A DNA stretch of 64,000 nucleotides from an uncultured Acidobacteriota bacterium (GTDB lineage Bacteria; Acidobacteriota; Vicinamibacteria; Vicinamibacterales; CAVPJW01), in contig CAWFOC010000004.1 in assembly GCA_963817395.1 (NCBI GenBank), forward strand, positions 564,914 through 628,913. The letters run 5' to 3'. Both the position numbers and the translations under genes were made by a program. This document shows, in pieces, positions 1 through 59,961 of the stretch. A model generated the notes under the pieces. It did no database searches. It was not told the origin of the DNA and saw only the letters and a list, made by a program, of their open reading frames with translations. How positions within the stretch are numbered: position 1 is the stretch's first letter; every line of letters begins with the position of its first letter.

Positions 1-940
1 CCAGACACTGACCGAAGCGCTCGACCACGACCGCGAACGGCGGCTGGTGCTCGAGCGGGCGCTCGCCGAAGCGAGCCTTGCCGGTGCCTCCCAGAACCGC
101 TCCGGTCTCCGACGGGGACGGCTCGCACGGCCGGTGGCGTCGCGCCGCTTGCGGGCGTGACGGCGGCCCAGCAGCTGCAGGAGGCGACGCGGGTGTTGCG
201 CGCGATGGAGCTGCGCCTCAAGCCTGAGCACCCGGACATCATCCAACTGAAGCGGACGATTCGTGAGCTCCAGAAGAAGGCGGATACCGAGGCCCTGGAA
301 CGTCCGGTCTCACCGGAGCTGGCCTCCGATTCGTCCACGGTCGATCCCGAGGAAGCACAGCGGCGCCGCCGTATCAGCGAGCTTCGCAGCGAGCTGCGGA
401 GCCTCGAGGTCCAGATGGCGGACCGTCAGGCCGAGGAGAAGCGGTTACGCGCGCAGAATTCGGTCGTACCAGGCCCGGCTCGAGGCGGCGCCCACACGGG
501 AGTCCGAGTTGATCGAGCTGACGCGCGACTACGACACGCTGCAGGGGGCCTACACGAGCCTGTTGTCGAAGAAGGAAGATGCGCAGGTTTCGGCCAATCT
601 CGAACGCCGCCAGATCGGCGAGCAGTTCAAGGTTCTCGATCCGGCGCGCCTGCCGGAGCGGCCTTTCAGTCCGAAGCGCTTGCAGCTGAACCTTTTCGGT
701 GTGCTGTTCGGCCTCGGTTTCGGAGCCGGTCTCGTCGCCCTGATGGAGGTGCGAGATTCGACGCTCAAGACGGACGAGGACGTCGTGAGCACGCTGAATC
801 TGCCAGTGCTGGCCATCATTCCCACGATGCTGACGACAATCGAGCGGAAGCGCCAGCGTCGTCGGCGGATGCTCATTTCGGCAACAACCACAGCCACGAT
901 CATCGTGGCGGCGATTGTTTTCTGGTCGCTGAAGTCCTGA
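1..940 (+). CDS. Polysaccharide chain-length determinant (PCP/Wzz-GumC-like, PEP-CTERM-locus type); 5' partial; at least two frame changes
   Basis: The coiled-coil segment AAQQLQEATRVLRAMELRLKPEHPDIIQLKRTIRELQKK (frame of ORF 157..984) continues in the frame of ORF 263..940 with YQARLEAAPTRESELIELTRDYDTLQ...ERRQIGEQFKVLDPARLPERPFSPKRLQLNLF. A C-terminal TM helix and an RKRQRRRR tail follow. The gene runs off the 5' edge, and frame switches occur near 70-155 and near 470. Confidence 0.6.
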
Positions 941-952
941 TTTGCTGGTGGA

Positions 953-1966
953 GTGATGTACGCACGGTTCTTCGGTCTCAATGAGTCGCCGTTCGAGCTG
1001 ACCTCGAACCTGCGCTACCTGTTCCTGACGCCCAAGCATCGGGCGGTGTTGAGCACCCTTCAGTACGGGATCAGCTCACGGAAAGGCACGACGCTGCTCG
1101 TCGGCGAGGCCGGTACGGGAAAGACGACGCTGATCCGGGCGGCGCTGGCGGCGCAGCGCGACGAATCAGCCAGTTGCATCTATCTCAGCAACCCGACGTT
1201 GAACCGCGAGGAGTTCTTGGAGTTTCTCGCGCGAGGGTTCTCACTGGGACCGTTGGCGGAGCAGTCCAAGACCGACTTTCTGGCCGAGCTCGAGCGTGCC
1301 CTGCGCCGGCAGGTCGACGAGGGCCGCGTGACGGCTCTCGTGATCGACGAGGCGCAGAGCCTGTCGTACGAGCTGCTCGAAGAGGTTCGCCTTCTGGCGA
1401 ACATGGAGACCGATTCGGGAAAGCTGCTGCCGGTCGTGCTGGCGGGACAGCCCGAGCTCGCCGATCGGTTGAACGAGCCGTCGCTCCGGCAGCTGAAGCA
1501 GCGCATTGCCCTTCGATGCGACCTGCGGCCCCTGGACCTGCGCGAAACGGCCGCGTATATCGCGGCGCGACTGCGATCGGCGGGTGGTGACGGACGCGAT
1601 GTGTTTACCCGCGAGGCAGTCGTCGCGATTCACGAGCAGTCACGGGGCATTCCGCGAACCATCAGCGTGATCGGCGACAACGCGCTCATCAACGGATTCG
1701 CCGTCGGCCGCCGGCCTGTGGGTCACGATCTGGTCATGGAAGCGTGCCGCGATCTTGATTTCAACCAGGACCCGGCCCCGGCGCTCGCCGACCCGATCAC
1801 CGACGTCTCCGGAGCGAGTGACCGTGCCGACCGCGATCCCGGCGAGGCCCCGGGAGGACGAGAGTGTTCGGAAGACACCGGAGCTGCCCTCGCTCTTCAG
1901 TCATGTCAACAAGCGCCGGCGTTTCTCATTTTTCTAATCATGAGCACGCGGCACCGACTCTCGTGA
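953..1966 (+). CDS. ExeA/GspA-like AAA ATPase (PEP-CTERM/exosortase-system-associated ATPase type)
   Basis: N-terminus is MYARFFGLNESPFELTSNLRYLFLTPKHRAVLSTLQYGI with Walker A GEAGTGKTT and Walker B LVIDEAQ. The C-terminal end is ambiguous, because alternate-frame ORF 1755..1937 ends in a plausible ...KRRRFSFF tail. Confidence 0.75.
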   Translation: MMYARFFGLNESPFELTSNLRYLFLTPKHRAVLSTLQYGISSRKGTTLLVGEAGTGKTTLIRAALAAQRDESASCIYLSNPTLNREEFLEFLARGFSLGPLAEQSKTDFLAELERALRRQVDEGRVTALVIDEAQSLSYELLEEVRLLANMETDSGKLLPVVLAGQPELADRLNEPSLRQLKQRIALRCDLRPLDLRETAAYIAARLRSAGGDGRDVFTREAVVAIHEQSRGIPRTISVIGDNALINGFAVGRRPVGHDLVMEACRDLDFNQDPAPALADPITDVSGASDRADRDPGEAPGGRECSEDTGAALALQSCQQAPAFLIFLIMSTRHRLS

Positions 1967-1984
1967 GGCCGTTGAGGAATAGCA

Positions 1985-2929
1985 ATGTCTCGCATAGAAG
2001 AAGCACTGAAGAAGTCTGGCGCTACGCTGAAGCTGCCCACTGAAGCGCCGCGGCAGGCCCCGGTCGATCTGGAACAGTTCCCGGCCGGACGCTCGGAGCC
2101 CGTCCCCGCGCCCCCGCTGGCCGATGGTCTGGGGATCTACGCGACCGAGCGCGAAGCGCATGACGAGCCGGTTCATTCCGTGCCGCCCCTGACGGCACCG
2201 GTGCCTCCTCAGGTCGCCTCGACCATGGCCATCTTCAGCGACGCATACAATGAGCGGCTCGTCGTCTCGTCGGCGACGCCTCCCGCACCGGTCGAACAGT
2301 ACCGCCGGCTCGCGGCGACCCTCCATCAAGCGCAGCTCGATCACGGCATCAAGACGGTCATGGTGGCAAGCGCGCTCGCGGGCGAAGGCAAGACCTTGAC
2401 GGCGACGAATCTGGCGCTGACGCTGAGCGAATCCTATCGACGCCGGGTGCTGTTGATCGATGCCGATCTGCGCCGCCCGATGATCCACGAGGTCTTCAAG
2501 ATCCCGAACGTCTCTGGCTTGTCGGAGGGAATCAACGCGTCACGGGATCAGAAGCTGTCACTGGTCGAGCTCTCTCCCCATCTCTCGGTGCTCACCGCAG
2601 GGCGACCCGAGGCGGATCCGATGAGCAGCCTGACGTCCGAACGCATGCGTCGCCTGCTCCAGGAGGCCTCGGAACGATTCGAGTGGGTCGTCCTCGACAC
2701 CCCGCCCGTGGGGTTGTTGTCGGATGCCACGCTTCTTGCGGACATGGTGGATGTCTCCATTCTCGTGATTGCCGCCGGCATGGCTCCCTTTGAAGCGGTC
2801 AACAAAGCCGTGGCTGCCCTCGGACGCGACAAGATCATCGGCGTGGTGCTCAACAGGGTGGAGGAGCGCCCGTCCTCGAACGGAGACTACTACCACCGTT
2901 ACTACTCGAACGACGCCGCGCGCCGGTAG
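1985..2929 (+). CDS. BY-kinase-like chain-length-determinant ATPase (CpsD/CapB family)
   Basis: Carries the P-loop SALAGEGKTLTATNLA, then VLLIDADLRRP and VLDTPPV motifs, and a Tyr-rich C-terminus (NGDYYHRYYSND). It sits directly after the PCP and ExeA-like genes. Confidence 0.75.
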   Translation: MSRIEEALKKSGATLKLPTEAPRQAPVDLEQFPAGRSEPVPAPPLADGLGIYATEREAHDEPVHSVPPLTAPVPPQVASTMAIFSDAYNERLVVSSATPPAPVEQYRRLAATLHQAQLDHGIKTVMVASALAGEGKTLTATNLALTLSESYRRRVLLIDADLRRPMIHEVFKIPNVSGLSEGINASRDQKLSLVELSPHLSVLTAGRPEADPMSSLTSERMRRLLQEASERFEWVVLDTPPVGLLSDATLLADMVDVSILVIAAGMAPFEAVNKAVAALGRDKIIGVVLNRVEERPSSNGDYYHRYYSNDAARR

Positions 2930-2958
2930 ACCGCGACGCGGCAAGGGAGACATGCGGG

Positions 2959-4342
2959 ATGGGTTCCGGCGTCACGATCCGTTCGGTCGCGCTGATCGCA
3001 TTCGAGACCCTGCTCATCGTGGCCGCCGTCGCTGTCAGCGCCTGGATTCGGCTCGGGCCTGACGCCTGGAGCCTGTTCACGCTCGAAGGCTCTCTCAAAG
3101 CCTTCCTGATTGCGGCCGTCTGCCAGCTCTGTCTCTACCTGGGCGATCTGTACGACCTGCGAAGCATCAAGGATCACCGCGACCTGTTCGTTCGCGCGGT
3201 CCGCGCCCTCGCGCTGACATCGTTCGTGCTGGCAGGCGTCTACTACTGGCTGCCGACCCTGATGATCGGGCGCGGCGTGTTCGTGCTGGCCTCGTTCCTC
3301 GTCATCACGACGGTCACCGGATGGCGCCTCGCGTTCGAATGGCTGAGCCGCAGCCTGGGTCCGAGAGAACGGCTGCTTCTCGTGGGCGTCAACGCCGCCG
3401 CCATTGGCCTGGTTCGTGAGCTGTTCGATCGAAGACACGACCTGGGTGTGGAAATCGTCGGCTTCGTGGACGCGGATCCGGCCCGAGTCGGATCGCCGGT
3501 GCTGAATCCGGGAGTGATTGGCACCATCGACGAGATTCCCGCGATCGTCCGTGCCCGTTCGGTGGATCGCGTCGTGGTGAGTCTGGCGGATGCCAGGGGC
3601 AAGCTGCCCATGGACAAGCTGCTGGAGATGAGGCTCGATGGCGTGAGGTTCGATCATCTGGCCTCGGTCTACGAGGAGTACACGGGCAAGATCGCCGTCG
3701 AGAACCTTCGCCCGAGCTGGCTGATCTTCTCGACCGGGTTTCGAAAGACAGCGGCCCTTCTTGGCCTGAAGCGCGCATTCGATCTGACGGTGGCGAGCGT
3801 GGGACTGGTGCTGGCCCTGCCCTTGATGGGTCTGATAGCCGCCGCGTTGAAGCTCTCGTCGCGCGGGCCCGTTTTCTACCACCAGGAGCGGGTCGGGCTC
3901 CAAGGCCGCATTTTCACGGTGCACAAGTTTCGATCGATGAGACCGGACGCCGAAGCGGTCAACCGGCGCGGTCTGGGCGAGCAAGGCCGGCGACGATCGG
4001 GTCACACCGGTTGGAGGATTCCTCAGGCGGGCCCGCCTCGACGAGCTCCCGCAACTCTGGAACGTTCTGAGAGGCGATATGAGCATGGTGGGTCCGCGGC
4101 CCGAACGCCCGGAGTTCATCCAGCGGCTGAGCAGCGTCATTCCGTTCTACGGCCAGCGACATGTCGTGCGGCCAGGGATCACCGGCTGGGCGCAAGTCAA
4201 GTACACCTACGGCGCCAGCGTCGAAGACGCCTTCGAGAAGCTTCAGTACGACCTCTACTACGTCAAGAACATGTCGATCGCGCTGGATTTGTTCATCCTG
4301 TTTTCGACGATCAAGACCGTTCTTCTGAGCCGCGGGGCCTAG
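2959..4342 (+). CDS. Initiating polyprenyl-phosphate sugar-phosphate transferase (EpsB/WbaP-type bacterial sugar transferase); one frameshift near 3960
   Basis: N-terminal TM helices are followed by the catalytic C-terminus ...FTVHKFRSMRPDAEA. This continues in the frame of ORF 4079..4342 as TGAVWASKAGDDRVTPVGGFLRRARLDELPQLWNVLRGDMSMVGPRPE...GITGWAQV. Confidence 0.8.
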
Positions 4343-4343
4343 C

Positions 4344-5381
4344 GTGACGCGACCTCACGAGCTCGAGGTGTCGAGCCGCTGGACCGAAGAGGAGTGGGAC
4401 GAGTTCGTGAACCAGAGCCCCGACGCCTCTGGCTATCACGATCACCGGTGGAGGCGCGTGTTCGAAAATGCATTCGGCCACGAGACCGACTACCTCGTGG
4501 CCCGCGCTGAAGAACAGATTGTGGGCGTCCTGCCGCTCGTCATCATGCGGAGCTGGCTGTTCGGCCGCTTCATGGTGTCGCTGCCCTTCGTCAACTACGG
4601 CGGCGCGCTGGGCGACGCCCCTGCCGTGCGCGCACTCGTCGAGACGGCGGTGGAGCGATGTCGCGCGCGGGGGCTGGCGTACCTCGAACTCAGACACGTG
4701 ACGCGGCGGTTTCCGGAGTACCCGGTGAGGCAGCACAAGGTGGCGATGCTGCTGGCCCTCGAGCCGAATGAGACGTCCATGTGGAAGCGGCTCGATCACA
4801 AGGTGCGGAACCAGGTTCGCAAGGCCGAAAAGAGCGGCCTGCGCGCGGAGGCGGGCGGTGCGGAGCTCGTCGCAGATTTCTATGACGTCTTCGCCGAAAA
4901 CATGCGCGACCTGGGCACGCCGGTCTATTCGCGGCGCTTCTTCGAGCAGATGCTCGCGCAGTTTCCGGGCAGCGTCGAGACGGTGCTGGTGCGGCTGGGA
5001 GACAAGGCCGTCGCGGGAGCCATCAGTTATTCCCATCACGAGCGGTTCGAGGTTCCATGGGCCTGCTCGCTGCGGTCCCATCGCGCGATGTGCCCGAACA
5101 TGCTGCTGTACTGGACGCTGATGACGCGCGCCATCGCCGCGGGCAGGACGACGCTCGATTTTGGGCGCTCAACCCCCGAGGAAGGCACCTTCCACTTCAA
5201 ACGGCAGTGGGGCGCCGTGCCGCAGAGTCTGTCCTGGGAGTACCCGTTTCTGACGGGCCGTCAGCTTCCCGATCAAAGCCCGAAGAATCCGAAGTTCAGG
5301 ACCGGCATCGAGCTCTGGAGGCGACTGCCCGTGCCGGTCGCGACGCTCCTTGGCCCTTCCATTGTCCGCGGCATTCCCTGA
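4344..5381 (+). CDS. FemAB-family protein (PEP-CTERM/exosortase-locus associated type)
   Basis: 345-aa intact ORF containing WDEFVNQSPDASGYHDHRWRRVFENAFGHETDYLVA...LPLVIMRSWLFGRFMVSLPFVNYGGA. Its GTG start lies 1-2 nt after the sugar-transferase stop. Confidence 0.7.
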   Translation: MTRPHELEVSSRWTEEEWDEFVNQSPDASGYHDHRWRRVFENAFGHETDYLVARAEEQIVGVLPLVIMRSWLFGRFMVSLPFVNYGGALGDAPAVRALVETAVERCRARGLAYLELRHVTRRFPEYPVRQHKVAMLLALEPNETSMWKRLDHKVRNQVRKAEKSGLRAEAGGAELVADFYDVFAENMRDLGTPVYSRRFFEQMLAQFPGSVETVLVRLGDKAVAGAISYSHHERFEVPWACSLRSHRAMCPNMLLYWTLMTRAIAAGRTTLDFGRSTPEEGTFHFKRQWGAVPQSLSWEYPFLTGRQLPDQSPKNPKFRTGIELWRRLPVPVATLLGPSIVRGIP

Positions 5382-5390
5382 GCGGGCGAT

Positions 5391-7028
5391 CTACTTCGTC
5401 AGGATGACCTTGCTCGGCGGCGACGGAGGTCTCGGCGGAGCCGACCCGGAAATCCCGCACGCAAGGCCATCGATGCCTGCCCTCGTCGTAGAGCAGGGCG
5501 CCACGGCGCCGTTGAGGGATCCCATACGGAGCCAGTTCTGCTGATTGGTCAGGCCGGGACCGGTGAGCCAAGCAGGCGGGGGTGTTGTCGGAGTTCAGGA
5601 TCGTCCGTGGAACGATGAAGCCCGGCGCCTGCGCGCCGTAGTACACGCGGAAGTTGTCGCCCGCTTGACGATTGTAGTTGTAAACCCGGAGCTCGTCAGG
5701 CGTGACGAGATCGCGCGTGGGATCGGACCTGGACAGAGGTCAATCGCCTGCGTCCCGCGACGCCAGCGGGGGTGGCAAACGTGGAGTCGGTGACATGACC
5801 TGCCGGGGCTGTATGCCGGCGGCGCTGTAAGAGCTCGGTCAGGTCCATGGCCAGATTCGTCTGGTTTCGCAGGTAGCTGTCCAACGCGTGCGGCACCCTG
5901 GAGAGGCCGCGGCGGCCGAGATAAAGATGCCGGTGACATCCCCTGAATGTCCGCGTTCCTGATGACGACGATGGAAGCCGGCATCTTTATCTCGGTACTT
6001 GGGGCCCGCGCCGCGGACGCGCGCGAGGACAGACGGCACCACGAGCGAAGGGGGAAGCAAGCCACCGGCCACGATCGCGCCGCGAGCCGAAACGCCAACG
6101 CGCGCGAGGACAGGGGGGCCCAATCTGATTGGTGCCGACCTGCGTCGGCCCCGATCGCGCGGCGCGGCGCGCCGGCCGCGGCGCGCGCGCTGCGCGCGCC
6201 GCGAGGCGGCGCGCGGCGCCGGAGCGCGGCGGGCCGGCGCGGGGCAGCGAGACGCCGTCGCGTCGCACCGGGGCGCAAGACGCTCGTCAGGTTGAGTGGG
6301 GCGCCGCTGGCGGTACCGAGCGTGAGGTCCTCGCACTGGAGGGAGAACCTCGACCCGGCCTCGTCCCACTTCAGATGTCGGCTATCGGGTATGACCAGGC
6401 GGTCTCCGGCCGCCCAGCCCGCCAGCGTCCGCGATGCCGTGAGCGCCGTGCGGCCGGCCGTCGGCTCGCGAGTCAGGCGATCGAAGGTCGGCGACGTGAC
6501 GGCGCCGTCAATTCTAACGAGTCCGAACGCCATGAACTCGGTGCCGTACTGTTCCGGGTCGGTGCTCGTATTCAAGGGGTCGGCAATGACGATTTCCTCC
6601 GTCACTCCCGCGGCTACCGGTGACGCCAGGGTGCCGATTTCGATCAATCCGCTGGGCGAGACTTCCAGCGTGCCAACCGTCAACCGCGTGTTGATATCGG
6701 TCCGGAATCGCGAGGCCCCATGGACGTCGACACGCGCCAGCGCCGCATTGCTCACGACGTCTTAGGTGACCGTCATTCCATCGCCGATCGACACCCCCTC
6801 GCCGGCGACGGGTGCGCGGCCGGCGCACCAGGTTGCCGGACTCGACCAGGCGCCGCTGCCGACGCTCCTGACGGTGGCTACCTCGCAGAAGTCTGGTATG
6901 TTATGAGGTAACCCGCTTGCACCAGCATGGTGGCCCTGCGCGCCTGCGAGGCCGGGAGAGGCGAAGAACGCCACCCAAGCCGAGACGAGGCACAGTAGGA
7001 CCCGCTTCGGACACCGTGCAACGGTCAT
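5391..7028 (-). pseudogene. Secreted G8-domain / beta-helix-like protein, heavily disrupted (in-frame TAA, several frame changes, near-pure GC tract)
   Basis: ORF 6762..7136 gives the signal peptide MTVARCPKRVLLCLVSAWVAFFASPGLAGA and the G8-like segment SGAWSSPATW...GRAPVAGEGVSIGDGMTVT. A TAA follows, and ORF 5595..6755 continues in the same frame (7136-6755=381). Downstream, coding-like pieces are spread over three frames (ORFs 5839..6369, 5696..5896, 5296..5646). Confidence 0.45.
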
Positions 7029-8887
7029 GGTCAGTCTCGGAACGCGAGACAGGGAGCTTTTGCGCTTGGCTATCCAGGCTGTTACCGACCACGGTCGTTT
7101 CACACCCGGTCGCGGGATTCTGGCGCTCATAGCCATTCTCGTTCTCGGATGGCTTGCGTCAGCGGCCCCGCGTCAAACTGCCCAGGTCACCGAGCTCTCG
7201 GCGTTCCACCGCGCGGGGCAAACCTTCCTCACGTGGCGCGAAGTCAATCCGCCCGATATCCCCGAGCCAGTCTCGGTGGAGCAGCTCAAGCGAATACGAA
7301 CCGACCTGGAGAAGCAGGGGATCCGGTACCGGATCTATCAGTCCGTCCAACCGATTCAATCGATCGCCGGGCTGAAGCCGATCGCCGAGGTGCGGTCGCT
7401 CACTGCTTGGAATTCAGAGTTCCATGGCGAGTACCATGCCCCAAGCGCCAGCGCTCCGTTATGTCATCGAAGACAACGCGGCGCCGCTCGCCAAAAATAC
7501 GGGGCTCGTCGTCCTGAATCCCGCGACCCCGGGACGGTCGTACTACGCCGTCACGGTGACAGTGGGCGGGGTGGAAACCCGCGTCGTCAATGCATCGAAC
7601 GCGTTGACGACGCCGGTCGACGAGACCGTCGCACAGGGTGTACCGGTTCTTCAGCGGGTGGAAAAACCCGCGGTTCACCTCTATATCGAGCGGCCCGAAC
7701 TTCGTTTCTACGTGCGCTGGGAATCGCCGCCGAATGCGAGCGTCGAGGGCAAGCCGTTCGATTATCTGATCGGGCTTCCTCCCATGCGGCGGTCTCCGGC
7801 ACCGGTCGGAATCCACCTGCATGCCTGGGGCGGCAGCCTCATGGGCGGCTACGGCTGGTGGTACAACGCCGAGCAGGGCGCCATACTGCTTGCGACCAAT
7901 CAGATTCCCTACGACTGGTGGACGGGCTACCACGAAGCGTACTTCGACCCAGGTCCTCGCCGCGCACAGGATTGGCAGCGGGGCGTCGTCAGACCGTATA
8001 CCCAACGACGGTTGTTGTCGTTTCTCGACTGGACCGCTGCAAATTTCAAGGTCGATCTCAGCAGAACGTTTACCGGGGGAGCCTCGATGGGCGGCAGCGG
8101 CGCCACGATGCTGGCGATCCGGTATCCAGATCGGATCGGCTGGAGCATCGGCTGGGTTGGCGTGCACCGGCCGAGCCAGTCGCCGACGTTCAAGTCTTCG
8201 TACGTCGGCGCGTACGGCGACCCCGAGTGGGGCGTTCGGTTCGAGGACGGCACGCCCGTCTGGGACTACTACGACGACGTCTGGTATCTTCGGCAGTACC
8301 CGAGCGTGAAACGCGGTTCATCACCTTCTCGAACGGCAAGAACGACGGCGGCATCGGATGGCCCAGGCAGTCGATTTCGCTGCGTGCCCTCCAGGAGACC
8401 AAGACGACCGCACCTCTTCGTCTGGGGCCAGGGGGGACACGGCCAGCGGGCGGTCATGCCCGAATGACCAGCCAGCGAGAAATGCCCATCGATATTCGTC
8501 TCGACCAGACGTTGCCGGCCTTCACCAACAGCAGCCTCGACGACAATCCCGGCAACGGGTCACCCGACGAGCGGGGACCCGGCCGGGCAATTCAACCGTT
8601 ATCTGTCTTGGGCGACCAACGATATCGTCGATCAGGCGGATCGCTGGGAGATGACGCTGCAGATGCCGGAAGCGGCCCCGGCTGCGCGGTGCACGGTCGA
8701 CGTCACTCCCCGGCGGTCTCAGCACTTCAAGGCGAAGCCGGGCGACAGCTTCACATGGTCGACCGGCGGCGGACAATCGGGTCGAGTCGTGGCCGATCGA
8801 TCGGGATTGGTCACGATTCCGGGGGTCGCTATGACGAAGGGAAGCACCCGTCTTCGCATCGTGAGGGATCGGACAACGGCTCAGTGA
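7027..8887 (+). CDS. Secreted alpha/beta-hydrolase-like protein (esterase/peptidase fold), at least 5 frame changes
   Basis: Pieces lie in ORFs 7027..9183, 7424..8467 and 8651..8887. There is a signal-like ILALIAILVLGWLASAAP segment and a GGASMGGSG nucleophile-elbow-like motif. Frame switches occur near 7435, 8300, 8400, 8465 and 8580. Confidence 0.5.
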
Positions 8888-11497
8888 CGGGTGCTTCGGC
8901 CGACGTCCCGTCAGCGCTCGTCCCTCCCTCGACATTCCGATCATCGTTTCCGTCCGCGATCCCGGTACGAGCCGTCGACGCGAACCGGTCACGCTTGGCG
9001 TGCCATTTCCGCCGGGTGCGTGCCCCGACCCGAACCGCTTGTGGCTCTCGGGCCCGGACGATCGTCCCACTCCGGTCCAGACGCGCGTGCTCGATCAGTG
9101 GGCGGATGGCTCGGCCCGATGGCTCTTGTCGATTTTCGCGCCGACAGCCATGCAGCAGGAGACATCGTCTACCGACTGCGTGACGGAGCAACGGAGACGC
9201 CTGCCGCGGAAGGGCGGCTGTTAGTGGAAGCGCTCGAGCGGGCGGTGACCGTTGATATCGGGTGCGGGCGTCTGGTTTTTCCACGCACCGGCGGATTCCG
9301 CATCGAATACGAACGATCCGATTCAACGAGGCACTCAAGGCAATCCTTCGTCGAGGTGGGCGTGCGTGACGACCGGGGAGACGCTGCGCTCGTGGAGCTC
9401 ACCGATCTCCGAATTGAAGAAGAAGGCCCCTTGAGATCGGTGGTGTTCGCGCGGGCTGGCGTGCGTCGTGCGGATGGTGAGTCACTTGTCGATCTGATCG
9501 TGCGCACCCATGTGTTCCATGGACTGGCTGCCGTTCGCTGTCATGTGACCGTTCGCAATCTCCGCCGAGCGCGTCATGCAGGCGGATTCTGGGAGCTCGG
9601 CGACGAGCAGTCGGTCTTCCTCACCGAGATGTTCGTCGCCGTCGAGTCGCTCGGGACGACCGCGGCGGACACTCTCTGTTCGATCGACGAGCATGCGCCG
9701 CTGAGGGTCTTGGGCTCGCCACTGTCGGTGTATCAGGACTCGAGCGGAGGACCGAACTGGCGGAGTGCGGCACACGTGAATCGATTCGGCCAGGTCCGTC
9801 ATCGCTTCCGGGGTTACCGGATGCGCGGTGGCCTGTCGGATGAGCACGGGCTGACGCGCTTCGCCCGTGGTGGTTCGTCGAGACGACGACGGCGAAGTGT
9901 CGGCAACCGTCAGGCACTTCTGGCAAAATTTCCCAATCGCCGCCGAAGCGGACGGACGACGGATCACGTTGCGTCTCCTGGCGCCTCAATACGACGATCT
10001 GCACGAGCTCCAGGCCGGGGAGCAGAAGACATATGAGATCGGTCTTGGACTCGATGCCGATCCAACGCCGATGTCCCGCTCAATTGGTGTCGAGTGCCGC
10101 TGCTCGTGCGCACCGATCCTCCGTGGTATGCCCGGGCGCGCGCCGCACCGTACCTGGTGCCTGCGCGCGACGACCCTCATATCCAACTATCTGCGTCTGG
10201 TGAACGCCGCGATTGAGGGGCCGGATACGTTCGAGCTGAAGCGCGAGCGCGTGGACGAGTACGGCTGGCGTCACTTCGGCGATCTCTACGCCGATCACGA
10301 GGCGGTGCGCGATTCTGGTCCCGAGCCTCTCGTCTCGCACTACAACAACCAATACGATGCCCTGGCAGGGTTCATCTACCACTTTTTCCGGACCGGCGAT
10401 GACCGCTGGTGGAGCCTGCTGGGACCTCTGGCCTCGCACGTTGCCGACATCGACGTGTATCACACGGAGCGCGACCGATCGGCATACAACCGCGGGCTGT
10501 TCTGGCACACCTTCCATTACCTCGATGCCGGGCTGTCCACGCACCGCTGCTACCCGCGCAGCCCCGGCGTCGGCGGCGGTGGACCATCCGCCGAGCACAA
10601 CTACACGACCGGCTTGATGCTCCATTACTTTCTGACGGGCGATCCGCGAAGCCGCGAGGCCGCGTTGGATCTGGCGCGCTGGGTCATCGACATGGACGAT
10701 GGCACGAGGACGCCGTTCAGATGGCTGACCCGCCAAGACACGGGACTGGCGAGCTCCACCGCCGACCTGGGCTATCACGGCCCGGGCCGTGGTGCTGGAA
10801 ACTCGGTCGTGACGCTGCTGAACGCGTGGCGGCTGACGGGTGACCGCCGCTACCTCGAGAAGGCCGAGGGGCTGATTCGCAGATGCATCAACCCCTCGGA
10901 TGACATCGAGGCGCTCAATCTGCTCGATGCCTGAGCGACGCTGGTCGTACCACCGTCTTTCTGCAGGCCCTCGGCCGATACCTCGACCAGAAAGCGGATG
11001 CCGGCGAGCTCGACGCAAGATATCGCTACGCACGGAGCAGCCTGCTGCGCTACGCCACCTGGATGGCGGCGCGAGAGTATCCCTACCTCGAGATACCAGA
11101 AAAGCTCGAATACCCCACTGAAACGTGGGCGGCCCAGGACATGCGCAAGAGCGAGGTGTTCAAGATGGCGGCCCGACACAGCACAGGAACGCCGCGTGAG
11201 CGGTTTCTCGAGCGCTCGGCATTCTTCTTCGAGAACTGCACGCGCACCTTGGCGTCGATGCCGACACGCACGCTGGTGCGCCCCGTGGCGATTCTCCTGA
11301 CGAACGGCTTCTCGCATGCCTACTTCATGCGGCACCCGGACACACGGGCCCCGGCCGTGGAAGAGCGCCGCGAGGACTTCGGTGCCCCCGAGCGTTTCAT
11401 CCCTCAGAAAATCCGCGCCATCCGCCGGGCGATGATGGTGATGGGCGGTCTGCTGCTGACGGCCGCCCTCGGGTGCGCGTATCTGCTCCTGCGGTAA
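8884..11497 (+). CDS. Large conserved protein, tentatively YetA/PcRGLX-like glycan lyase architecture; C-terminal TM helix; at least 6 frame changes
   Basis: Coding pieces occur in ORFs 9000..9224 (EPVTLGVPFPPGACPDPNRLWLSG...VQTRVLDQWADGSARWLL), 8891..10036, 9867..10934 (RHFWQNFPIAAEADG...; YNNQYDALAGFIYHFFRTGDDRWW) and 11063..11497. The GTG start overlaps the upstream stop. The fold assignment is from memory only. Confidence 0.4.
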
Positions 11498-11616
11498 CGC
11501 CCGCATCAACCAATTGCGCCACGGTGCTACCCGCCGTCGTCAGACCGCGGCAGTCTGCACGGACAACGTGAAGACGCCCGCGGCGATTTCGGAATCGAGG
11601 AGGCAAGTTCCGAGGT

Positions 11617-12804
11617 TCAGCGGCGCGCTGCCGACTCGAGAATGCCGGGCAGCGCGGCGAGTTGGTCTGGCCACCCGAGGCGGCTGAGGTCGGCGCACGC
11701 CGCGCGCTTGCGGCGCTCGGTGGAAGGACGGGCCAGCAGGTCGAGCAGGGCGCGCGCAAAGGCGTCCGCCGTGTCCGCGACAGTGCATGCACATCCGACC
11801 TCGCGCGGCAGGCCTTCGGCCACGACCGACGTGACGACGACCGGAAGTCCGGCGGCGATGGCTTCGAGGACCTTGTTCTGGATGCCGCGTGCAGAGCTGA
11901 GCGGCGCGACGGAGACGGCCGCGCGCCAGAGATACGGCCGGACGTCGCTCACCGCGCCCGTAACCTCAACGGTCGGGTCCGTTCGCGCGAGCGACATGAC
12001 GGCCCGGTCGGGATCGGACCCAACCAGCGCAAGGCGGGCGTCTGGACGCTCGCGTCGCACGAGCGGCCACACCGTGCTCGCCAACCAGCGCGCGGCGTCC
12101 ACGTTGGGCGCATAGTTCATGACCCCGCAAAAGACGACGCGCGGATCGCTGGCAGGCGGGTCGGATGGGCGAAAGGCCGACACGTCGACGCCGTTCGGCA
12201 CGACGTGGATGGCCGCGGTTGTCCGGCCCGCCAGGACCGCACGTTCCCGTTCGTTGACGACCAGTGTGGCCTCCGCGCGCTCAGCCGCAGCGACCTCGAA
12301 ACCAGCCAGGCAACGGCCCTCGCGCGCGTAAATCCACCTTCGCGGTCCGTGAACGGTCGTCGCCAGCGTGTGCCACTTTTCCGAATCGACGTCCACCATG
12401 TCCAGGACGAAGGGAACCTCGCTCAAGGGCGCTTCAAGCGCGAACCGTGCCATGCCTGAGCAGTAGGACAGGACCACATCAGGGCGGTGCTCCGTCATGA
12501 GCCTGGAAGCCGCCTGCAGGAGATCCGGCGAATCGAGCAGCGCGTGTGTGAGCGGTCGGGTCGTCGGAAGGCTCAAGAGACCTCGGCCGATGTTTGCAAG
12601 GCGCGGCACGGACGCGGTCGCCACGCGTGCGACCAGGCCACGAAGCTCGGACGTATGCGACTGTTCTTCGATGTCGTGGACCAGCGACAGCAAGTCCACT
12701 TCGATGCGCGCGGCCTCGAGCGTCTTCAGAATATGGAACGCGCGGATTCGATCGCCTCGATTGGGAGCGTATGGCAGGCGGTGGGTGAGAAACAGCACTC
12801 TCAT
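11617..12804 (-). CDS. GT4 glycosyltransferase (PEP-CTERM/EpsH1-associated 'stp1'-like)
   Basis: N-terminus MRVLFLTHRLPYAPNRGDRIRAFHILKTL is characteristic of this family, and the ORF is intact. The ATG at 12804 lies 1 nt after the upstream stop; the ORF-track start at 12828 would overlap that gene. Confidence 0.75.
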   Translation of the reverse strand: MRVLFLTHRLPYAPNRGDRIRAFHILKTLEAARIEVDLLSLVHDIEEQSHTSELRGLVARVATASVPRLANIGRGLLSLPTTRPLTHALLDSPDLLQAASRLMTEHRPDVVLSYCSGMARFALEAPLSEVPFVLDMVDVDSEKWHTLATTVHGPRRWIYAREGRCLAGFEVAAAERAEATLVVNERERAVLAGRTTAAIHVVPNGVDVSAFRPSDPPASDPRVVFCGVMNYAPNVDAARWLASTVWPLVRRERPDARLALVGSDPDRAVMSLARTDPTVEVTGAVSDVRPYLWRAAVSVAPLSSARGIQNKVLEAIAAGLPVVVTSVVAEGLPREVGCACTVADTADAFARALLDLLARPSTERRKRAACADLSRLGWPDQLAALPGILESAARR

Positions 12805-12805
12805 A

Positions 12806-13402
12806 TCACGTAGTGGCCACCCCTTCACGGCTGCTCACCACGCGCGCGGGAACGCCCGCGACGACGACGCGATCAGGTACGGGCTTGGTGACCACCGCGC
12901 CGGCACCGACCACGCTGTCACGGCCGACATCCGCCATGACGATCGCGGCGCTTCCGATCCACGAGCCGGCTCCGATCCGCACCAGTCTGCGGATCCCGGG
13001 CTGGTCGCGGATTGGTGTCGCCACATCGGAAGTGCCGTGGAGACGGCCGCCGCTCGGCACATGAACGCCTGGTGCCAGCAGTACGTCGTGTTCGATGTGC
13101 ACGAGCCCGAGGCAACACCCCGGGCCGACATACGCGCGCGCGTCGATACGCGCGCCCGCTTTCGAGAACACCGTGCCGAACTCGATGGTGGCAGTCCGGT
13201 CGCAGTGATCCAGGGCACGCGCGAGGAACGCGCGTCGCAAGTACTGTCCCAGGATTCCCGGGAAGAGCGACAGCGCCTGCGTCGAGCCTTCGAGCGCCCG
13301 ATCACGGCCGACGACCGCAGATCGAAGCAGGAACGACAGCAGAGCCGGGGCCACCGCCAAGGATGCCGCGGCGTAGCCGAGCAGCTTCAAGGCTTCTCTC
13401 AC
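12806..13402 (-). CDS. Hexapeptide-repeat (LbH) O-acetyltransferase
   Basis: An N-terminal hydrophobic segment is followed by hexapeptide repeats (VRIGAGSWIGSAAIVMADVGRDSVVGAGAVV). Confidence 0.7.
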   Translation of the reverse strand: MREALKLLGYAAASLAVAPALLSFLLRSAVVGRDRALEGSTQALSLFPGILGQYLRRAFLARALDHCDRTATIEFGTVFSKAGARIDARAYVGPGCCLGLVHIEHDVLLAPGVHVPSGGRLHGTSDVATPIRDQPGIRRLVRIGAGSWIGSAAIVMADVGRDSVVGAGAVVTKPVPDRVVVAGVPARVVSSREGVATT

Positions 13403-14583
13403 GCCGATACCCAGGATTCGTGGCCCTCGCGCGGTTCACCGGGCCGGGTGGATGAGGCCAGTTCCTCGTACAGGGATTCCAGCGTGCGCCTCCGTGCAGA
13501 GAATGAGAGATCGTGCTCGACGCGCGAGCGGGCCGTTCGCACGCGCTGTGCGGTACCGACGGGGTCGGCGAATGTTCGTTCGATCGCGGCCGCGAGAGCC
13601 TGCGTATTGCGTGGCGGGACCAGCAATCCATGTACACCGTCGGCCACGAGTTCATCCGTTCCGCCGACCGCAGTCGCCACGATCGGCGTTTCGAGCGCCA
13701 TGGCTTCGAGCACTGCGTTCGGCGTGCCCTCGGAATCGGAAGACTGGACGAACACGTCGAAGGCGTTGTGCAGATCGGCGACGTCCAGTCGCTGACCCAG
13801 AAATGAACAGACGCCTGCGGGCAGTGTCCGGCGGGCCTGGTCCTGAAGATCCTCGAGCAGGCCTCCGGTTCCGGCGATCACCAGACGGATCGCGGGCCGC
13901 GATCGCACGAGTGTCGCGACCGCGGCGATGAGCAGATCGAACCGCTTCACGGGCAGCAGGCTGCCCACCGCTCCCACCACCAGGTGTTCGTTCGTGAAAC
14001 CGAGCGAAGCCCGCACAAGACCCCGGCGCTGAGGCTCACGGCGGAACACGGTCTCGTCAATTGCGTTGAGCACTGTTCGAATTCGTTCCGGGCGCGCGCC
14101 GCTCCGGATGAGCGTGGCGCGGATCTTGCTCGACACGGCCACGAGCAGCGGAAAGGAGGCGAGCAGCCATCGATCAGCCGGGTAGTAGATGTAGCGCTCG
14201 CGGAACGTCCGGCCCGCCCAGCCGTGTACAGTGGACATCACTTTGACTGCGGACGTCCGGGCAAGAATCCATGCCAGAAAGTCGGTCTTGTAGTCGTGCG
14301 CATGCACGATCTGGATATGTCGATCCCGGATGATGCTCGTCAGCGCGGGCCACATCCGCGGATCGAAAGAGCTCCGTTCCAAAATCTCGACATAATCAAC
14401 GCCCAGCTGGCGTGCTCGAGCGTCGATGGCAAAGATGTCGTCACGGTCACTTCTCATGTAGCACACGGTAATGGCGAATCGCCGGGCATCGGCCTGCGCC
14501 GCGCCGAGAAGGATCGTCTTTTCAGGGCCGCCGCCCGTGCCACGGACAGAGCGCAGCTCGAGAATGCGAATGGGCCCCGTCAT
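13399..14583 (-). CDS. GT4 glycosyltransferase
   Basis: Starts MTGPIRILELRSVRGTGGGPEKTIL and has a C-terminal GT1/GT4 core (SDSEGTPNAVLEAMALETPIVATAVGGTDELV). The ATG at 14583 forms an ATGA overlap with the upstream stop. Confidence 0.75.
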   Translation of the reverse strand: MTGPIRILELRSVRGTGGGPEKTILLGAAQADARRFAITVCYMRSDRDDIFAIDARARQLGVDYVEILERSSFDPRMWPALTSIIRDRHIQIVHAHDYKTDFLAWILARTSAVKVMSTVHGWAGRTFRERYIYYPADRWLLASFPLLVAVSSKIRATLIRSGARPERIRTVLNAIDETVFRREPQRRGLVRASLGFTNEHLVVGAVGSLLPVKRFDLLIAAVATLVRSRPAIRLVIAGTGGLLEDLQDQARRTLPAGVCSFLGQRLDVADLHNAFDVFVQSSDSEGTPNAVLEAMALETPIVATAVGGTDELVADGVHGLLVPPRNTQALAAAIERTFADPVGTAQRVRTARSRVEHDLSFSARRRTLESLYEELASSTRPGEPREGHESWVSA

Positions 14584-15590
14584 CTCGCGACCGCACGCGG
14601 GACGGCGGCCGTCGCGTGGCGGCGATGCGGCATCCTGACGACGAGCGCCGCCGCGCGAGCCAGGTCGTATGTGCCGGCCACGGCGAGAGCCTGCAGCAGA
14701 TCCGCGGCGGCAAACGACCGGCGGTGAGCCAGGATCCTGAGCGCGCGCAGCGCGGCGAGCACGACGAACGCCGATGCGGCCAGGACAGCGGGCCACCAGC
14801 CGATGACTCGCGCGGCAGCCACGCCGACGATGGTGCCAGCGACAAGCCCCAGATCGACGATCGGAATGACGATGCTCGGCAGCTCACGCGCGGATACTGG
14901 CCCGCGAACGCTCACACGCAGGTTGTCACGGCCGCGCCACAGCTCGCCGACGAACAGGGCTCTGAGCGTTTCCGGATCGCCAAAGTGCGTATTTTCCATG
15001 CGATCGTCGGCGACGATGCGCCCGCCAGAGTCGCGCAGGCGCCGACAGAAGTCGACGTCCTCGCAGGTTTCGAGGCGTACGTCGAAGCCGCCGAGCTCGT
15101 GGAACGTCTTCGCGGGCACCGCCAGGTTTCCGCTGCCCAGCCAGTCGACATCGCGTCTGCCCGGTTGATGCAGGCGCATCCCGTCGTACATGCGCTGAAC
15201 CCAGGTGCCATCCGCTGGGGCGTGACAGGGCGCACCGGCGGCTAGAACCCCGTCGCCATCGAGCGCGTCGACGGCTGTGTCGATCCACATCCGTCCGATC
15301 TCGTGATCGGCGTCCACGAATGCCAGAATCTGACCTCGAGCGATCTTGGCGCCCGCATTCCGCAGTTCTGCCACACGGGCAGCCGGGTCGACCAGTGTCA
15401 CGGCACCTGCGGCCCGCGCGACGGCGACGGAGTCGTCAGTGGAGCCGTTGTCGATGACCACGGTTTCGACCAGCTCGGTCGGGTAGGTGTTATGCCGGAT
15501 CGATGCGAGACACCGCTCCAGTCTGCGGGCATCGTTTCTGACCGGAATCACGAACGAGACAGTCGGGTGCGCACGCTGGCCTGCAGTCAC
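14580..15590 (-). CDS. GT2 glycosyltransferase with C-terminal TM segments
   Basis: Contains VSFVIPVRNDARRLERCLASI...VIDNGSTDDS...LAFVDADH (DxD), followed by C-terminal hydrophobic helices. Confidence 0.8.
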   Translation of the reverse strand: MTAGQRAHPTVSFVIPVRNDARRLERCLASIRHNTYPTELVETVVIDNGSTDDSVAVARAAGAVTLVDPAARVAELRNAGAKIARGQILAFVDADHEIGRMWIDTAVDALDGDGVLAAGAPCHAPADGTWVQRMYDGMRLHQPGRRDVDWLGSGNLAVPAKTFHELGGFDVRLETCEDVDFCRRLRDSGGRIVADDRMENTHFGDPETLRALFVGELWRGRDNLRVSVRGPVSARELPSIVIPIVDLGLVAGTIVGVAAARVIGWWPAVLAASAFVVLAALRALRILAHRRSFAAADLLQALAVAGTYDLARAAALVVRMPHRRHATAAVPRAVAR

Positions 15591-16848
15591 GGATTGCGGC
15601 TCGGCTGAAGCTCGAACGCGCCTGCGTCGGACGTATCTGGGTCGCGCGGGCTCTTGTCGAAGTCGTCGACAATGTCGGCCAGCGGCACGCCGGCGTTAAC
15701 GGCCGGAACGGTCGGTCCCGCGAGATGCAGATCGGCCGCCGCCGCATCGACGAACCACGGGCGAGCGGCTGTGGCGAGATTGCCATGCTGGTCGGCCTGG
15801 CCGCCGTCGCGCAGGGTGATGGCCCGGTTCGTCAGGTTGTTCCGGACTTTGACGCTCGTCAGCGGGAACCGAATGCTGATGGACCAGGGAAGCTGGCCTT
15901 CGACCAAAACGGTGTTGTGGTCGATCGAGAGGTCGCGTGCGGCGTTCGCCTCAATCCCCTCGTCGCCCCAGGAGTTGAGGTTCCAGACGACGTTGTTGAG
16001 GATTCGACCGCCCTGATGATCGAAGTATCGTTCGCCGTCGCGCGCAGTACCGTTCACCGGGCCCAGACCGAATGCGATTCCCCGGAAAGAATCGACAATC
16101 AGATTGCGCTCGACGATGGTGTTCTGGGAATTGGCCCAGAAGAGCACCGCGGGGCCGGCGTTGCGGCGATTCTGGGGTCCGCGAATCCTCGAAAACCTAT
16201 TGTCGCGAACGATCCATCCTCGGCCAGAGAGGATGTCGATGCCGTTCGTATAGTCCCCCGGGGCGTGATCGGTGTATCGATCAACGAACACGCCAGCAAC
16301 CCATCGTCCGGTCCTCGCCCGTCGGAGCCGACGCTGCCCTTGATGAGCTGCTGTCCCGTGTTGACCACTCGGATGTTCTGCAGCACGACATTCGAGGCTC
16401 CGCGCTCGCCACGAACCTGCACGCCGTGAAAGCGCACGTACCCAACCGTCAGGTCGGCCAGCGTGACGTGGCTCGCACTGATCGACAGGGCGACGCCCAC
16501 GTTCGGTTCCTGCATTCCGTCGCCGCGCACGATCACCTTGCCGCGATCACCGCTTCGGCCACGAATCACGACGCGCTCCGTCGAGATGTCCAGCATGCGA
16601 TCGAGGCGATATTCTCCCTCTTCCAGCAGAATCGTGGTCCCTGGTTTCGCGTCTGCCACCAGCCTGCGAAGTTCGTCCATGTTCCTGGCCGTGCGAGTGA
16701 TCGACGTCTGGGGCGGCGTCCACCCGCAACGTGGATCTGTCGCCGGACTCTGCGGGCCACCGGACGTCGAGGTACCGTGCGCGGCAACGATAGTTGCAAG
16801 CGCGGCGACGAACGAAAAGCCGAGGCGCGATCCGCGGCTACGGTGCAT
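15587..16848 (-). CDS. Secreted right-handed beta-helix protein (pectate-lyase-superfamily-like); one frameshift near 16294
   Basis: ORF 16099..16869 supplies a signal peptide (RLGFSFVAALATIVAAHG), and ORF 15587..16291 supplies repeated NxxI/V beta-helix rungs (IVRDNRF, IVERNLI, ILNNVVW, SIDHNTV, KVRNNL). TAATG couples it to the upstream gene and ATGA to the downstream gene. Confidence 0.55.
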
Positions 16849-29516: not shown

Positions 29517-29599
29517 GTCGCGCGTTGCGACAGAGCCGTGGCCAAGCGGGGTCGTTTGGTGAGCCGGCGGTGTGATGGGTTGCACGCGCGGCGTCCGTC

Positions 29600-50678: not shown

Positions 50679-50774
50679 GCTCCTGGGTTACGATGCTCGA
50701 CGAATTCGTCGGGCACTATAGCTCGAATCGTGCGGACCGGCCAGGACGGTTCGTCGGCTGCAGGAGGCCGCGTC

Positions 50775-58268: not shown

Positions 58269-58453
58269 GAATCACGCCACAGGACGCCCGATTAAAACGG
58301 CACGAATCGGCCCGAAAGTGCGGGGTTGCGAGCGGCGCACCCGCCGCCGTCTCGCGGATGGCTCCAAAATGAAGCAGTCACTGCTCCAATCCGCATGATC
58401 GGAGTCCTCGCGGCTTGCACGGCCGCAGCTGAGTACGGCACTCTGGGGCGGTC

Positions 58454-59961
<1,508 letters not shown>

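Follow-up and report, generated by a model that had tools for sequence, protein, structure and literature searches.

Probable local consensus errors around a predicted G8 pseudogene in an exosortase-type exopolysaccharide locus

We have analyzed three adjacent genes, coding for a G8/CEMIP-type beta-helix protein, an esterase-like alpha/beta-hydrolase and a PcRGLX/YetA-like protein, that lie in a strongly degraded zone of an exopolysaccharide (EPS) locus within a 64-kb stretch of DNA (called the window below). We will argue that this zone reflects mostly local long-read consensus errors, combined with one genuine pseudogene, the G8 gene, and we estimate the probability of this explanation to be ca 0.7. 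Nearly all lesions are read as consensus errors because they are private to this assembly, avoid homopolymers, and occur in bursts and in a ramp that crosses gene boundaries. An earlier note on this DNA had left the choice between a failure of the assembly and the pseudogenization of an EPS module. The former would account for most of the lesions, while the latter applies to G8 only, by virtue of an inherited stop codon.

The comparison that separates the two kinds of lesion is a four-way alignment of this assembly with its closest relatives, the assemblies L084 (95–97% identity), L081 and L082. Every indel in the hot spot that changes the frame is private to the present assembly, and the 0.7-kb collapse and a 122-nt intergenic deletion described below are likewise absent from the three relatives. 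Orthologous loci, whose comparison had been proposed as a check in the earlier note, show thus a private set of frame-changing indels and one inherited stop. Several independent noisy assemblies can in this way, without reads, separate inherited from private lesions, here one stop from about 27 indels.

Lesion density in the window

Lesions were called by frameshift-aware protein-to-DNA alignment against intact orthologues, together with 3- and 4-way DNA alignments. Positions 5391–11497 contain about 27 indels that change the frame, together with one in-frame stop and a stretch of about 0.7 kb that is collapsed. The earlier count for the three genes, at least 17 frame changes plus one in-frame stop, is therefore correct as a lower limit, the real number of frame changes being higher. 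Outside this interval, when only frameshifts backed by homology or by split Pfam profiles are counted, about 14–20 are present in 57.9 kb, to be compared with the approximately 22 reported previously for the other 58 kb. This background predicts 1.5–2.1 lesions per 6.1 kb, while at least 26 were found (Poisson P 1e-23 to 9e-20). The Poisson test on formally aligned lesions, which had also been proposed, confirms thus the excess at P < 1e-19. Uniform sequencing error is inadequate to describe this pattern, as the note had held; the error would be local. Also relative to the immediate flank (1321–4650) the lesion rate is elevated, 4.3 versus 0.9 per kb (binomial P = 0.002).

The lesions are unevenly distributed along the zone, with bursts at 5519–5937 and 8302–8569, and the degradation begins already at about 4650, i.e. 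before 5391 and within an intact gene of the FemAB family. The deposited ORF products P0001 (7424–8467) and P0137 match this DNA exactly, so that the public record contains the lesions.

The long neighbors had been described as intact. This is true of GT2 (14583–15569), but the adjoining gene of about 413 aa has a frameshift at about 16277. Damage of the same kind is seen elsewhere in the 64 kb, the broken conserved genes including an aldehyde dehydrogenase and a TonB-type barrel (three pieces each), an amino-acid permease, a GNVR gene and a priming transferase. Codon-usage Viterbi frame tracking gave 40 frame switches, which served only to pick candidates, these being verified by homology or by split Pfam profiles; gene overlaps look like frameshifts in this tracking, and closely spaced compensating indels are missed. 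An apparent stop at 15698 was rejected as an aligner artefact, the 756-aa ORF of L081 at this place being a fusion of two genes via a +1 of L081's own. For the gene at 28095–29831, a search for a close orthologue along the L081 genome found none (best match 44–45%, a GT39-like family) and did not improve the background estimate. An Rfam search of 5000–12000 yielded no family at threshold.

The locus and the condition of its genes

To classify the locus, we considered the co-located genes specific to the XrtA/PEP-CTERM system, namely the TIGR03019 FemAB gene, TIGR03097, a tyrosine autokinase, a priming glycosyltransferase and an amidotransferase. On the basis of these genes the stretch is assigned as an XrtA/PEP-CTERM (exosortase A) exopolysaccharide locus. 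In addition to the FemAB match (Table 1), TIGR03097 (O-glycosylation-ligase-like) scores 206.9 bits (cut-off 188); TIGR03018, TIGR03013 and TIGR03108 each give the top match for the gene concerned, yet remain below cut-off. The FemAB gene has no frameshift, its 3' end is within the error ramp, and it carries 20 private substitutions here versus 0 in L084. The trio of G8, esterase and PcRGLX sits between this gene and the glycosyltransferases. PcRGLX homologues adjoin similar EPS genes in many loci of Acidobacteriota and Planctomycetota. The trio is not kept as a unit, an esterase homologue being found in 0 of 80 distant loci and G8 in a few.

Table 1. Genes and lesions of the degraded zone, in window coordinates.
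Feature	Coordinates	Strand	Basis or description
FemAB-family XrtA/PEP-CTERM-associated gene	4344–5381	+	TIGR03019, 378 bits (cut-off 260)
One-sided error ramp	4651–6300		Private substitutions and indels in 150-nt profile
G8/CEMIP-beta-helix gene	5391–7028	−	ATG at 7028, stop 5391–5393; homologues and GC-frame pattern on minus strand
Private deletion burst, 3' third of G8	5519–5937		11–12 deletions of 1–2 nt (one 5 nt), zero insertions
Putative collapsed segment, 306 nt	5969–6274		>80% GC, (CG)n-rich, palindromic
In-frame stop TAA (TAC>TAA, Tyr)	6762–6764	−	Common to this assembly and L084; TAC in L081 and L082
Private 122-nt deletion, divergent G8/esterase intergenic region	7058–7066		4-way alignment
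Alpha/beta-hydrolase (esterase-like) gene, ~605 aa	7066–8887	+	Pfam; intact L081 orthologue P0124 (605 aa)
PcRGLX/YetA-like gene, ~860 aa	8916–11497	+	Pfam, homologues

A plus-strand reading of the G8 gene was considered and rejected, as Pfam searches with the plus-strand translations of 5254–6908 are empty and both homologues and GC-frame pattern indicate the opposite strand. The L081 orthologue is intact (799 aa) and matches PF10162 G8 with 51.9 bits (cut-off 22.9) and PF24606 CEMIP_beta-hel with 60.9 bits (cut-off 27.3). The parts retained in the present copy have about 89–94% DNA identity to this orthologue. The fragments of the present copy gave no Pfam match, since the G8 domain is interrupted by the stop and the collapsed block takes in the beta-helix region; membership in the G8/CEMIP family is predicted here from orthology.

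The in-frame stop falls at about codon 92 of the G8 reading frame, and its occurrence in two independent assemblies implies that it is inherited and real. Codon deletions are present at 6578 and 7000, the one at 6578 being common to L084, and a conserved Arg codon is removed by a deletion that this copy and L084 have in common. For the N-terminal and C-terminal parts the dN/dS is 0.39 and 0.68, respectively. In outgroup relative-rate tests the G8 lineage is accelerated (26 vs 7, 66 vs 23 and 63 vs 32 changes), the first pair being amino-acid changes in the indel-free N-terminal part (P = 0.001). The substitutions on the shared branch are distributed as 18/7/12 over the codon positions, without third-position bias. 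An inherited inactivating lesion and relaxed selection, the two marks of a pseudogene, are both found in G8 only. As judged from its sequence, this gene is a genuine but ordinary pseudogene that has probably been further damaged by lesions at the assembly level.

For the esterase-like gene, a start at ATG 7027 had been suggested previously, but a TTG at 7066, which aligns to the start of the orthologue, is most likely the correct one. The gene carries eight private 1-nt indels (7437, 8302, 8364, 8381, 8403, 8459, 8472 and 8569). Its fragment 7376–8464 matches PF00756 'Putative esterase' with 22.2 bits (gathering cut-off 22), the L081 orthologue does so with 31.9 bits along with a weaker Peptidase_S9 match, and the same profile is found in more than 100 homologues with a length of about 600 aa. 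The dN/dS of 0.16 is within the range of the intact neighbors (0.09–0.42), and relative-rate tests are balanced (e.g. 25 vs 20 and 29 vs 27). An inherited lesion was sought across the four assemblies and none is common to any two of them. The gene is thus probably intact in the organism. Its private substitutions are weakly third-position biased (16/9/21 by codon position, P = 0.09), which leaves room for a very recent real inactivation.

The PcRGLX-like gene contains six to seven private 1-nt indels, at 9125, 9853, 10066, 10181, 10929, 10950 and possibly 8929. The PF19501 PcRGLX_1st profile scores 36.6 bits at 8865–9221 (cut-off 22.1). The central part of this copy gave no Pfam match of its own; a full-length homologue that is ~54% identical throughout (L018) matches both PcRGLX_1st and PcRGLX_2nd (PF21345). 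The dN/dS is 0.20, again within the range of the intact neighbors, with no relative-rate excess, and the private substitutions are distributed as 17/13/43 over the codon positions (uniformity P = 2e-5), similar numbers being obtained for the terminal branch of L081 (13/14/35). The private lesions amount to 6–7 here, 5 in L081, 3 in L084 and 1 in L082, and the search for an inherited one found none common to any two of the four assemblies. A candidate at about 10950, which shares one MAFFT column with L084, was dismissed, as the bases are different and 4 nt apart, making these independent events. We conclude that this gene, too, is probably intact in the organism. The five lesions in L081 are all +1 insertions, versus one other lesion found across the rest of its locus. 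A concentration on particular genes is unexpected for errors, yet the PcRGLX gene is a hot spot in L081 too, and in L084 private insertions are enriched in G8.

The error ramp is seen when private events are counted per 150 nt. The values (substitutions+indels) are 5, 1, 3, 7, 4+1, 8+2, 5+2, 14+4, 24+5, 36+15 and 45+6, and then 2. The ramp climbs across the FemAB/G8 boundary, has its maximum at 5850–6300, and is abruptly at baseline again at 6301; the part 6301–6900 is free of 1-nt indels and has 2–4 private substitutions in each 150 nt. Within the deletion burst the indel:substitution ratio is 0.22–0.36, and the counts are 2:68 in the N-terminal part of G8 versus 13:41 in the burst part (Fisher P = 5e-4). 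The 306-nt segment takes the place of about 990–998 nt that L081, L082 and L084 all retain, a portion of the G8 coding sequence that comprises the beta-helix core. It is the sole stretch of the window above 80% GC, and it retains colinear residual homology to the G8 orthologue (z = 8 vs shuffles). A foreign or repeated element was also considered for this block and rejected, given this homology and the lack of a second copy in the 64 kb or in 84 loci. The block is taken to be a collapsed derivative of G8 sequence, not an insertion.

Origin of the lesions

Among the 36 events private to this assembly, 26 are exactly 1 nt, and 23 of these 26 fall on isolated bases outside homopolymers, versus 59% for the background. 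Indel:substitution ratios reach 0.2–0.3, with 0.30 in the C-terminal part of G8 and 0.18 in the esterase. No convincing 4-mer enrichment was found at the indels; GATC occurs 12 times versus 5.8 expected (z = 2.7), short of significance when 136 tests are taken into account.

The related assemblies have similar defects of their own. In L084, the private indels are 15 insertions and 2 deletions, all but one of 1 nt, and indels stand to substitutions as 4:7 in Bac_transf and as 2:0 in FemAB. The private indels of L082 amount to about 1 per kb, and the related contig L083 shows 76 gap openings over 4.8 kb. Since these sister contigs carry their own private 1-nt indels, the best reading of the lesions in the esterase and PcRGLX genes is that of long-read consensus errors. 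We infer that the source is an error-prone long-read metagenome assembly and that the platform is Nanopore. A project with matching contig naming assembled Nanopore reads alone with Flye and one Medaka round, and did no polishing with short reads (PMC12313526). The local failure would be caused by low local coverage and co-occurring strains. Strain mixing at the locus is plausible, since L083 and L084 come from the same sample and both span it, the L084 contig stops directly after PcRGLX, and L082 is a 13.7-kb fragment.

The scenario that we propose is as follows. The zone from ~4.6 to 11 kb, lying within a strain-variable XrtA/PEP-CTERM locus, would have obtained a far poorer consensus than the rest. 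Its worst part, 4650–6275, may be near raw-read quality, with about 1 kb of G8 collapsed to a 0.3-kb GC-rich block of low complexity, and the 1-nt indels in the esterase and PcRGLX genes would be the same kind of consensus error. The Tyr-to-stop change in G8 would have preceded the split from the closest sampled relative, with drift of the gene afterwards.

Another option considered is that all three genes are genuine pseudogenes, the loss of G8 having made the esterase and PcRGLX dispensable, so that they decay independently in each lineage. G8 is truly inactivated, the adjacent genes plausibly have the same polymer as substrate, private PcRGLX lesions are present in all four assemblies and in L081 are concentrated there, and the larger deletions (122 nt and about 690 nt) are compatible with a deletional bias. 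However, we consider this scenario unlikely. The two genes lack any lesion common to two assemblies, they have dN/dS values of 0.16–0.20 and balanced relative rates, and the third-position bias of PcRGLX, both here and in L081, is incompatible with several successive frameshifts there. The proposed order of events fails in L081, where G8 and the esterase are intact but PcRGLX is 'broken'. Furthermore, the ramp enters the intact FemAB gene, and the indels are almost all of 1 nt and avoid homopolymers, in which they differ from natural bacterial slippage mutations. The coordinated decay of a three-gene EPS-remodeling module, one of the two options of the earlier note, is not upheld. We also give little credence to the idea that the trio is a real gene-loss hot spot in a soil clade, with PcRGLX decaying in parallel in this lineage, L081 and L084, and G8 already dead in two lineages. 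If this were true, the EPS-processing enzymes of exosortase loci would be shed repeatedly and very recently, with the biosynthetic genes kept.

At the other extreme, everything could be artefactual, including the G8 stop, which would then be a basecalling or consensus error made systematically at one site in this assembly and in L084, with G8 intact in vivo. Both this assembly and L084 are noisy, and systematic, motif-linked errors are known in Nanopore data. Against this stands that the TAA is a clean substitution within the clean stretch 6301–6900, that L081 and L082 show TAC in identical sequence context, and that the accelerated N-terminal part, the unbiased shared-branch substitutions and the inherited Arg-codon deletion come in addition to the stop. 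An intact G8 is thus highly improbable. Under a mosaic origin of the zone, by recombination with a divergent unsampled strain in a hypervariable EPS island, the apparent erosion would be divergence and not damage. This would fit with the divergence to L081, which rises from 3–8% to 15–29% inside the locus, with the larger number of private substitutions here than in L084 over 4.6–11.5 kb, and with the selection-filtered appearance of those in PcRGLX. Recombination, however, makes no frame-breaking 1-nt indels, low-complexity collapse or one-sided ramp; it may account for part of the extra substitutions but not for the lesions, and we regard it as very unlikely to be the origin of the zone. In the GT4b segment (13–14.5 kb), the relatives are even more divergent from each other and there are zero lesions, which shows that divergence alone fails to predict errors. 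Programmed frameshifting, phase variation and diversity-generating retroelements were rejected, as the indels are outside repeats and slippery sites, too many per gene, and private.

Relation to known systems

In Nanopore-only metagenome assemblies made with Flye and Medaka, indel errors truncate ORFs, especially at low coverage. The present case is similar in that 1-nt indels break conserved genes here and in four related contigs, that each assembly has its private set of indels, and that protein conservation is back once the frames are restored. It is different from the textbook Nanopore consensus error, which affects homopolymers, by its preference for isolated bases. It is also different from uniform residual error, the bursts, the ramp and the collapsed block indicating a stretch that was left unpolished or in which strains are mixed. 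The long-read workflow of MFD relies on Nanopore data alone and includes a single Medaka round; errors of this type were checked for by its authors (PMC12313526).

The G8 gene resembles an ordinary nonsense pseudogene in its inherited TAC>TAA change, relaxed substitutions and lost conserved codon, all common to L084. Unlike in such a pseudogene, the deletion burst and the collapse, which make up most of the visible damage here, are private and resemble errors. The real result would then be unremarkable, namely the loss of a G8/CEMIP-type beta-helix gene from an exosortase-type EPS locus in a soil bacterium and in its closest sampled relative, while a decaying EPS-remodeling module would be a false biological story resting on consensus errors. 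Left uncorrected, such a region gives rise to truncated or fused database proteins, as exemplified by the 347-aa P0001, the 268-aa P0137 and the fused L081 ORF. Finally, enzymes that cleave or modify polysaccharides, for example PslG, PelA, AlgL and BcsZ, are also encoded inside EPS loci, as the trio is here; the trio differs in not being kept together.

Locus and comparators

The three lesion-rich genes, encoding a G8/CEMIP-beta-helix protein (G8), an alpha/beta-hydrolase (esterase) and a PcRGLX/YetA-like protein (PcRGLX), sit within an XrtA/PEP-CTERM (exosortase-type) exopolysaccharide (EPS) locus. They are preceded by genes for a GNVR chain-length determinant, an AAA ATPase, an XrtA-associated tyrosine autokinase, a priming glycosyltransferase and a FemAB-family protein (TIGR03019 above cut-off), and followed by glycosyltransferases, a hexapeptide transferase, two AsnB-type amidotransferases and an exosortase-associated O-glycosylation-ligase-like protein (TIGR03097 above cut-off).

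Through the 90% cluster of an esterase fragment three relatives were reached, each an ENA-analysis contig with a Flye-style name ('contig_N'): L081 (548 kb, with G8 of 799 aa and esterase of 605 aa both intact), L082 (13.7 kb) and L083 (4.7 kb). The closest relative, L084 (261 kb, ending directly after PcRGLX), was found via the cluster of a PcRGLX fragment; its identity is 97.3% over window 284-5968 and 95.2% over 7063-11498. Full-length PcRGLX and some G8 homologues came from 80 remoter Acidobacteriota/Planctomycetota loci. Lesions (frame-changing indels and in-frame stops) were called from frameshift-aware alignments of the window DNA with intact protein orthologues, together with three- and four-way DNA alignments. 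Changes found in only one assembly of the four-way alignment (window, L084, L081, L082) are called private.

The 80 remoter loci were picked solely for a PcRGLX-like gene, and their ORFs span most of window 1-26 kb, so such genes commonly lie within similar EPS loci in both phyla. G8 homologues are adjacent in few of them (e.g. L057, L063, L038), and an esterase homologue in none. The GT39/PMT_2-like glycosyltransferase of the window has no close relative, its best match in a collection of 5.8 billion proteins being 44-45% identical.

Features and lesions, in window coordinates
Feature	Position	Strand	Detail
G8/CEMIP-beta-helix gene	7028->5391	-	
'Esterase' gene	7066-8887	+	
PcRGLX/YetA-like gene	8916-11497	+	
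G8 small deletions	5519-5937		11-12 events
Collapsed block in G8	5969-6274		306 nt; ~990 nt in relatives
G8 stop	6762-6764		TAC>TAA; two codon deletions lie elsewhere in G8
Esterase 1-nt indels	7437; 8302-8569		8 events
Inverted repeat	5916-5933 / 5978-5995		18 nt, perfect; 44-nt spacer; at block edge
Recurring motifs	6012-6089; 6093-6169		two, ~25-30 nt, ~80 nt apart
Low-complexity array	6156-6242		palindromic, (CG)n-like
GT2 gene	14583-15569		intact
GT39/PMT_2-like gene	28095-29831	-	stop-to-stop frame 579 aa, ~100 aa beyond ~475-aa homologues
Background frameshifts	84-123, 467, 1806, 3961, 16277, 22826, 30640, about 50105		those near 22826 and 30640 lone
Broken conserved genes far from the trio	58433-59958, 49190-50687, 60823-63851		
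L081 PcRGLX +1 insertions	9303, 10106, 10374, 10410, 10557		window-equivalent; gene at L081:11818-14432

Lesion density and indel spectrum

PcRGLX carries six to seven 1-nt indels, and 122 nt are absent between G8 and the esterase. In total, at least 26 lesions are observed in 6.1 kb, against about 2 expected at the background rate (P < 1e-19). The heterogeneity on which the earlier note remarked is thus real and exceeds its estimate. That note offered pseudogenisation or a local assembly fault, and both hold, for separate parts: the former for G8, the latter most probably for nearly all other lesions. The finding is best classed as a local assembly artefact over one ordinary pseudogene.

The rest of the window has about 14-20 supportable frameshifts, a few of them uncertain, including two each in an aldehyde dehydrogenase and a TonB-type barrel. 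The dehydrogenase is split in three (Pfam positions 1-149, 148-360 and 343-461), as is the outer-membrane barrel, and an amino-acid permease is split in two. Compared with L081, the GNVR/Wzz-type gene has four 1-nt indels inside 42 nt (82-123) and one more at 465-467.

None of the frame-changing indels of the trio, nor the collapsed block or the 122-nt deletion, occurs in L084, L081 or L082. The sister contigs each have their own private single-base indels, also in functional-looking genes: in L084 there are 15 insertions and 2 deletions, only one of them longer than 1 nt, and indels against substitutions number 4:7 in the priming transferase and 2:0 in FemAB; L082 averages roughly one such indel per kb, and L083 shows 76 gap openings over 4.8 kb. 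One-base events fall on isolated bases outside homopolymers in 23 of 26 cases (background 59%), and the local indel:substitution ratio reaches 0.2-0.36. This spectrum is unlike natural slippage. Moreover, window-private substitutions and indels rise steadily from about 4650, within the intact FemAB gene on the opposite strand, to a maximum at 5850-6300, and are back at baseline at 6301. Such a one-sided ramp, crossing gene boundaries, is something that ill-supported consensus produces and selection on genes does not.

The collapsed block, the sole stretch above 80% GC in a window of 65% GC, retains colinear remnants of G8 sequence (z = 8), which mark it as a degraded copy of that gene. The distal arm of the inverted repeat at its edge looks like an inverted copy of true G8 sequence.

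Selection in the three genes and decay of G8

Two independent assemblies, the window and L084, carry the G8 stop, where L081 and L082 read TAC; loss of a conserved Arg by deletion is likewise common to the former two. Even the N-terminal third of G8, which is free of indels, has evolved faster in this lineage than in L081 (26 vs 7, P = 0.001), and substitutions on the shared branch lack third-position bias (18/7/12 at codon positions 1/2/3). G8 is therefore a genuine pseudogene and became one before the window and L084 diverged. The burst of deletions and the collapsed block, within the 3' two-thirds of the gene, are window-private; their indel:substitution ratio differs from the N-terminal part's (Fisher P = 5e-4), and they are assigned to assembly, not decay.

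The esterase and PcRGLX, judged by their sequences, look like functioning genes. Their dN/dS values against L081 are 0.16 and 0.20 (intact neighbours 0.09-0.42). Comparisons that take distant homologues as outgroups show no more change in the window esterase, once its frame is restored, than in the intact L081 one (25 vs 20, 29 vs 27, 20 vs 23, 21 vs 21, etc.), and for PcRGLX the change is if anything smaller than in relatives. PcRGLX substitutions on the terminal window branch, polarised with L084, are 17/13/43 (P = 2e-5), which cannot be reconciled with six successive true frameshifts on that branch. For the esterase the bias is less clear-cut (16/9/21, P = 0.09), and a very recent genuine inactivation on the window branch is possible. 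It is also conceivable that PcRGLX is truly decaying in parallel: the otherwise nearly clean L081 has five private +1 insertions there, so that lesions cluster in this gene in two independent assemblies. L081-private substitutions in PcRGLX are still third-position biased (13/14/35). We consider parallel decay quite improbable.

Possible causes of the local error

The EPS locus is mosaic. Under the assembly reading, co-occurring variants would leave each haplotype with less effective coverage and mislead the polishing step. Divergence to L081 rises abruptly within the locus, from 3-8% to 15-29%; to L081 and L082 it is 3-8% (500-5000), 15-26% (7000-10500) and 23-31% (13000-14500). This pattern suggests recombination or allele replacement. 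L083 and L084, from one sample (ENA ERZ25039469), cover the same locus and are, respectively, ca 81-88% and 95-97% identical to the window; their overlap and the end of L084 after PcRGLX suggest that variants co-occur and that the assembly graph breaks at the EPS island. L082 is a short fragment. The Microflora Danica long-read workflow uses Nanopore reads, Flye --meta and one Medaka round, without short-read polishing (PMC12313526). Its contig naming matches the comparator records, and the window's record is a candidate member of that project.

The highly divergent segment at 13-14.5 kb (GT4b) has zero lesions, and private insertions in L084 are over-represented within G8; together with the L081 insertions in PcRGLX, these indicate some further cause of the local error rate. 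GATC lies within 7 nt of 12 of the 68 private indels in the four assemblies (window 1321-11497; 5.8 expected, z = 2.7), which is not significant after multiple testing.

It should also be noted that GT2 is intact in the window, as first reported, and the ~413-aa gene beside it is frameshifted at about 16277. In L081 a 756-aa 'GT2 + Pel9A-like' ORF (L081:17515-19785; window 14583-16848) is two genes fused because of that contig's own +1 at window-equivalent 15860; distant relatives have separate genes there, of ~413 and ~325 aa.
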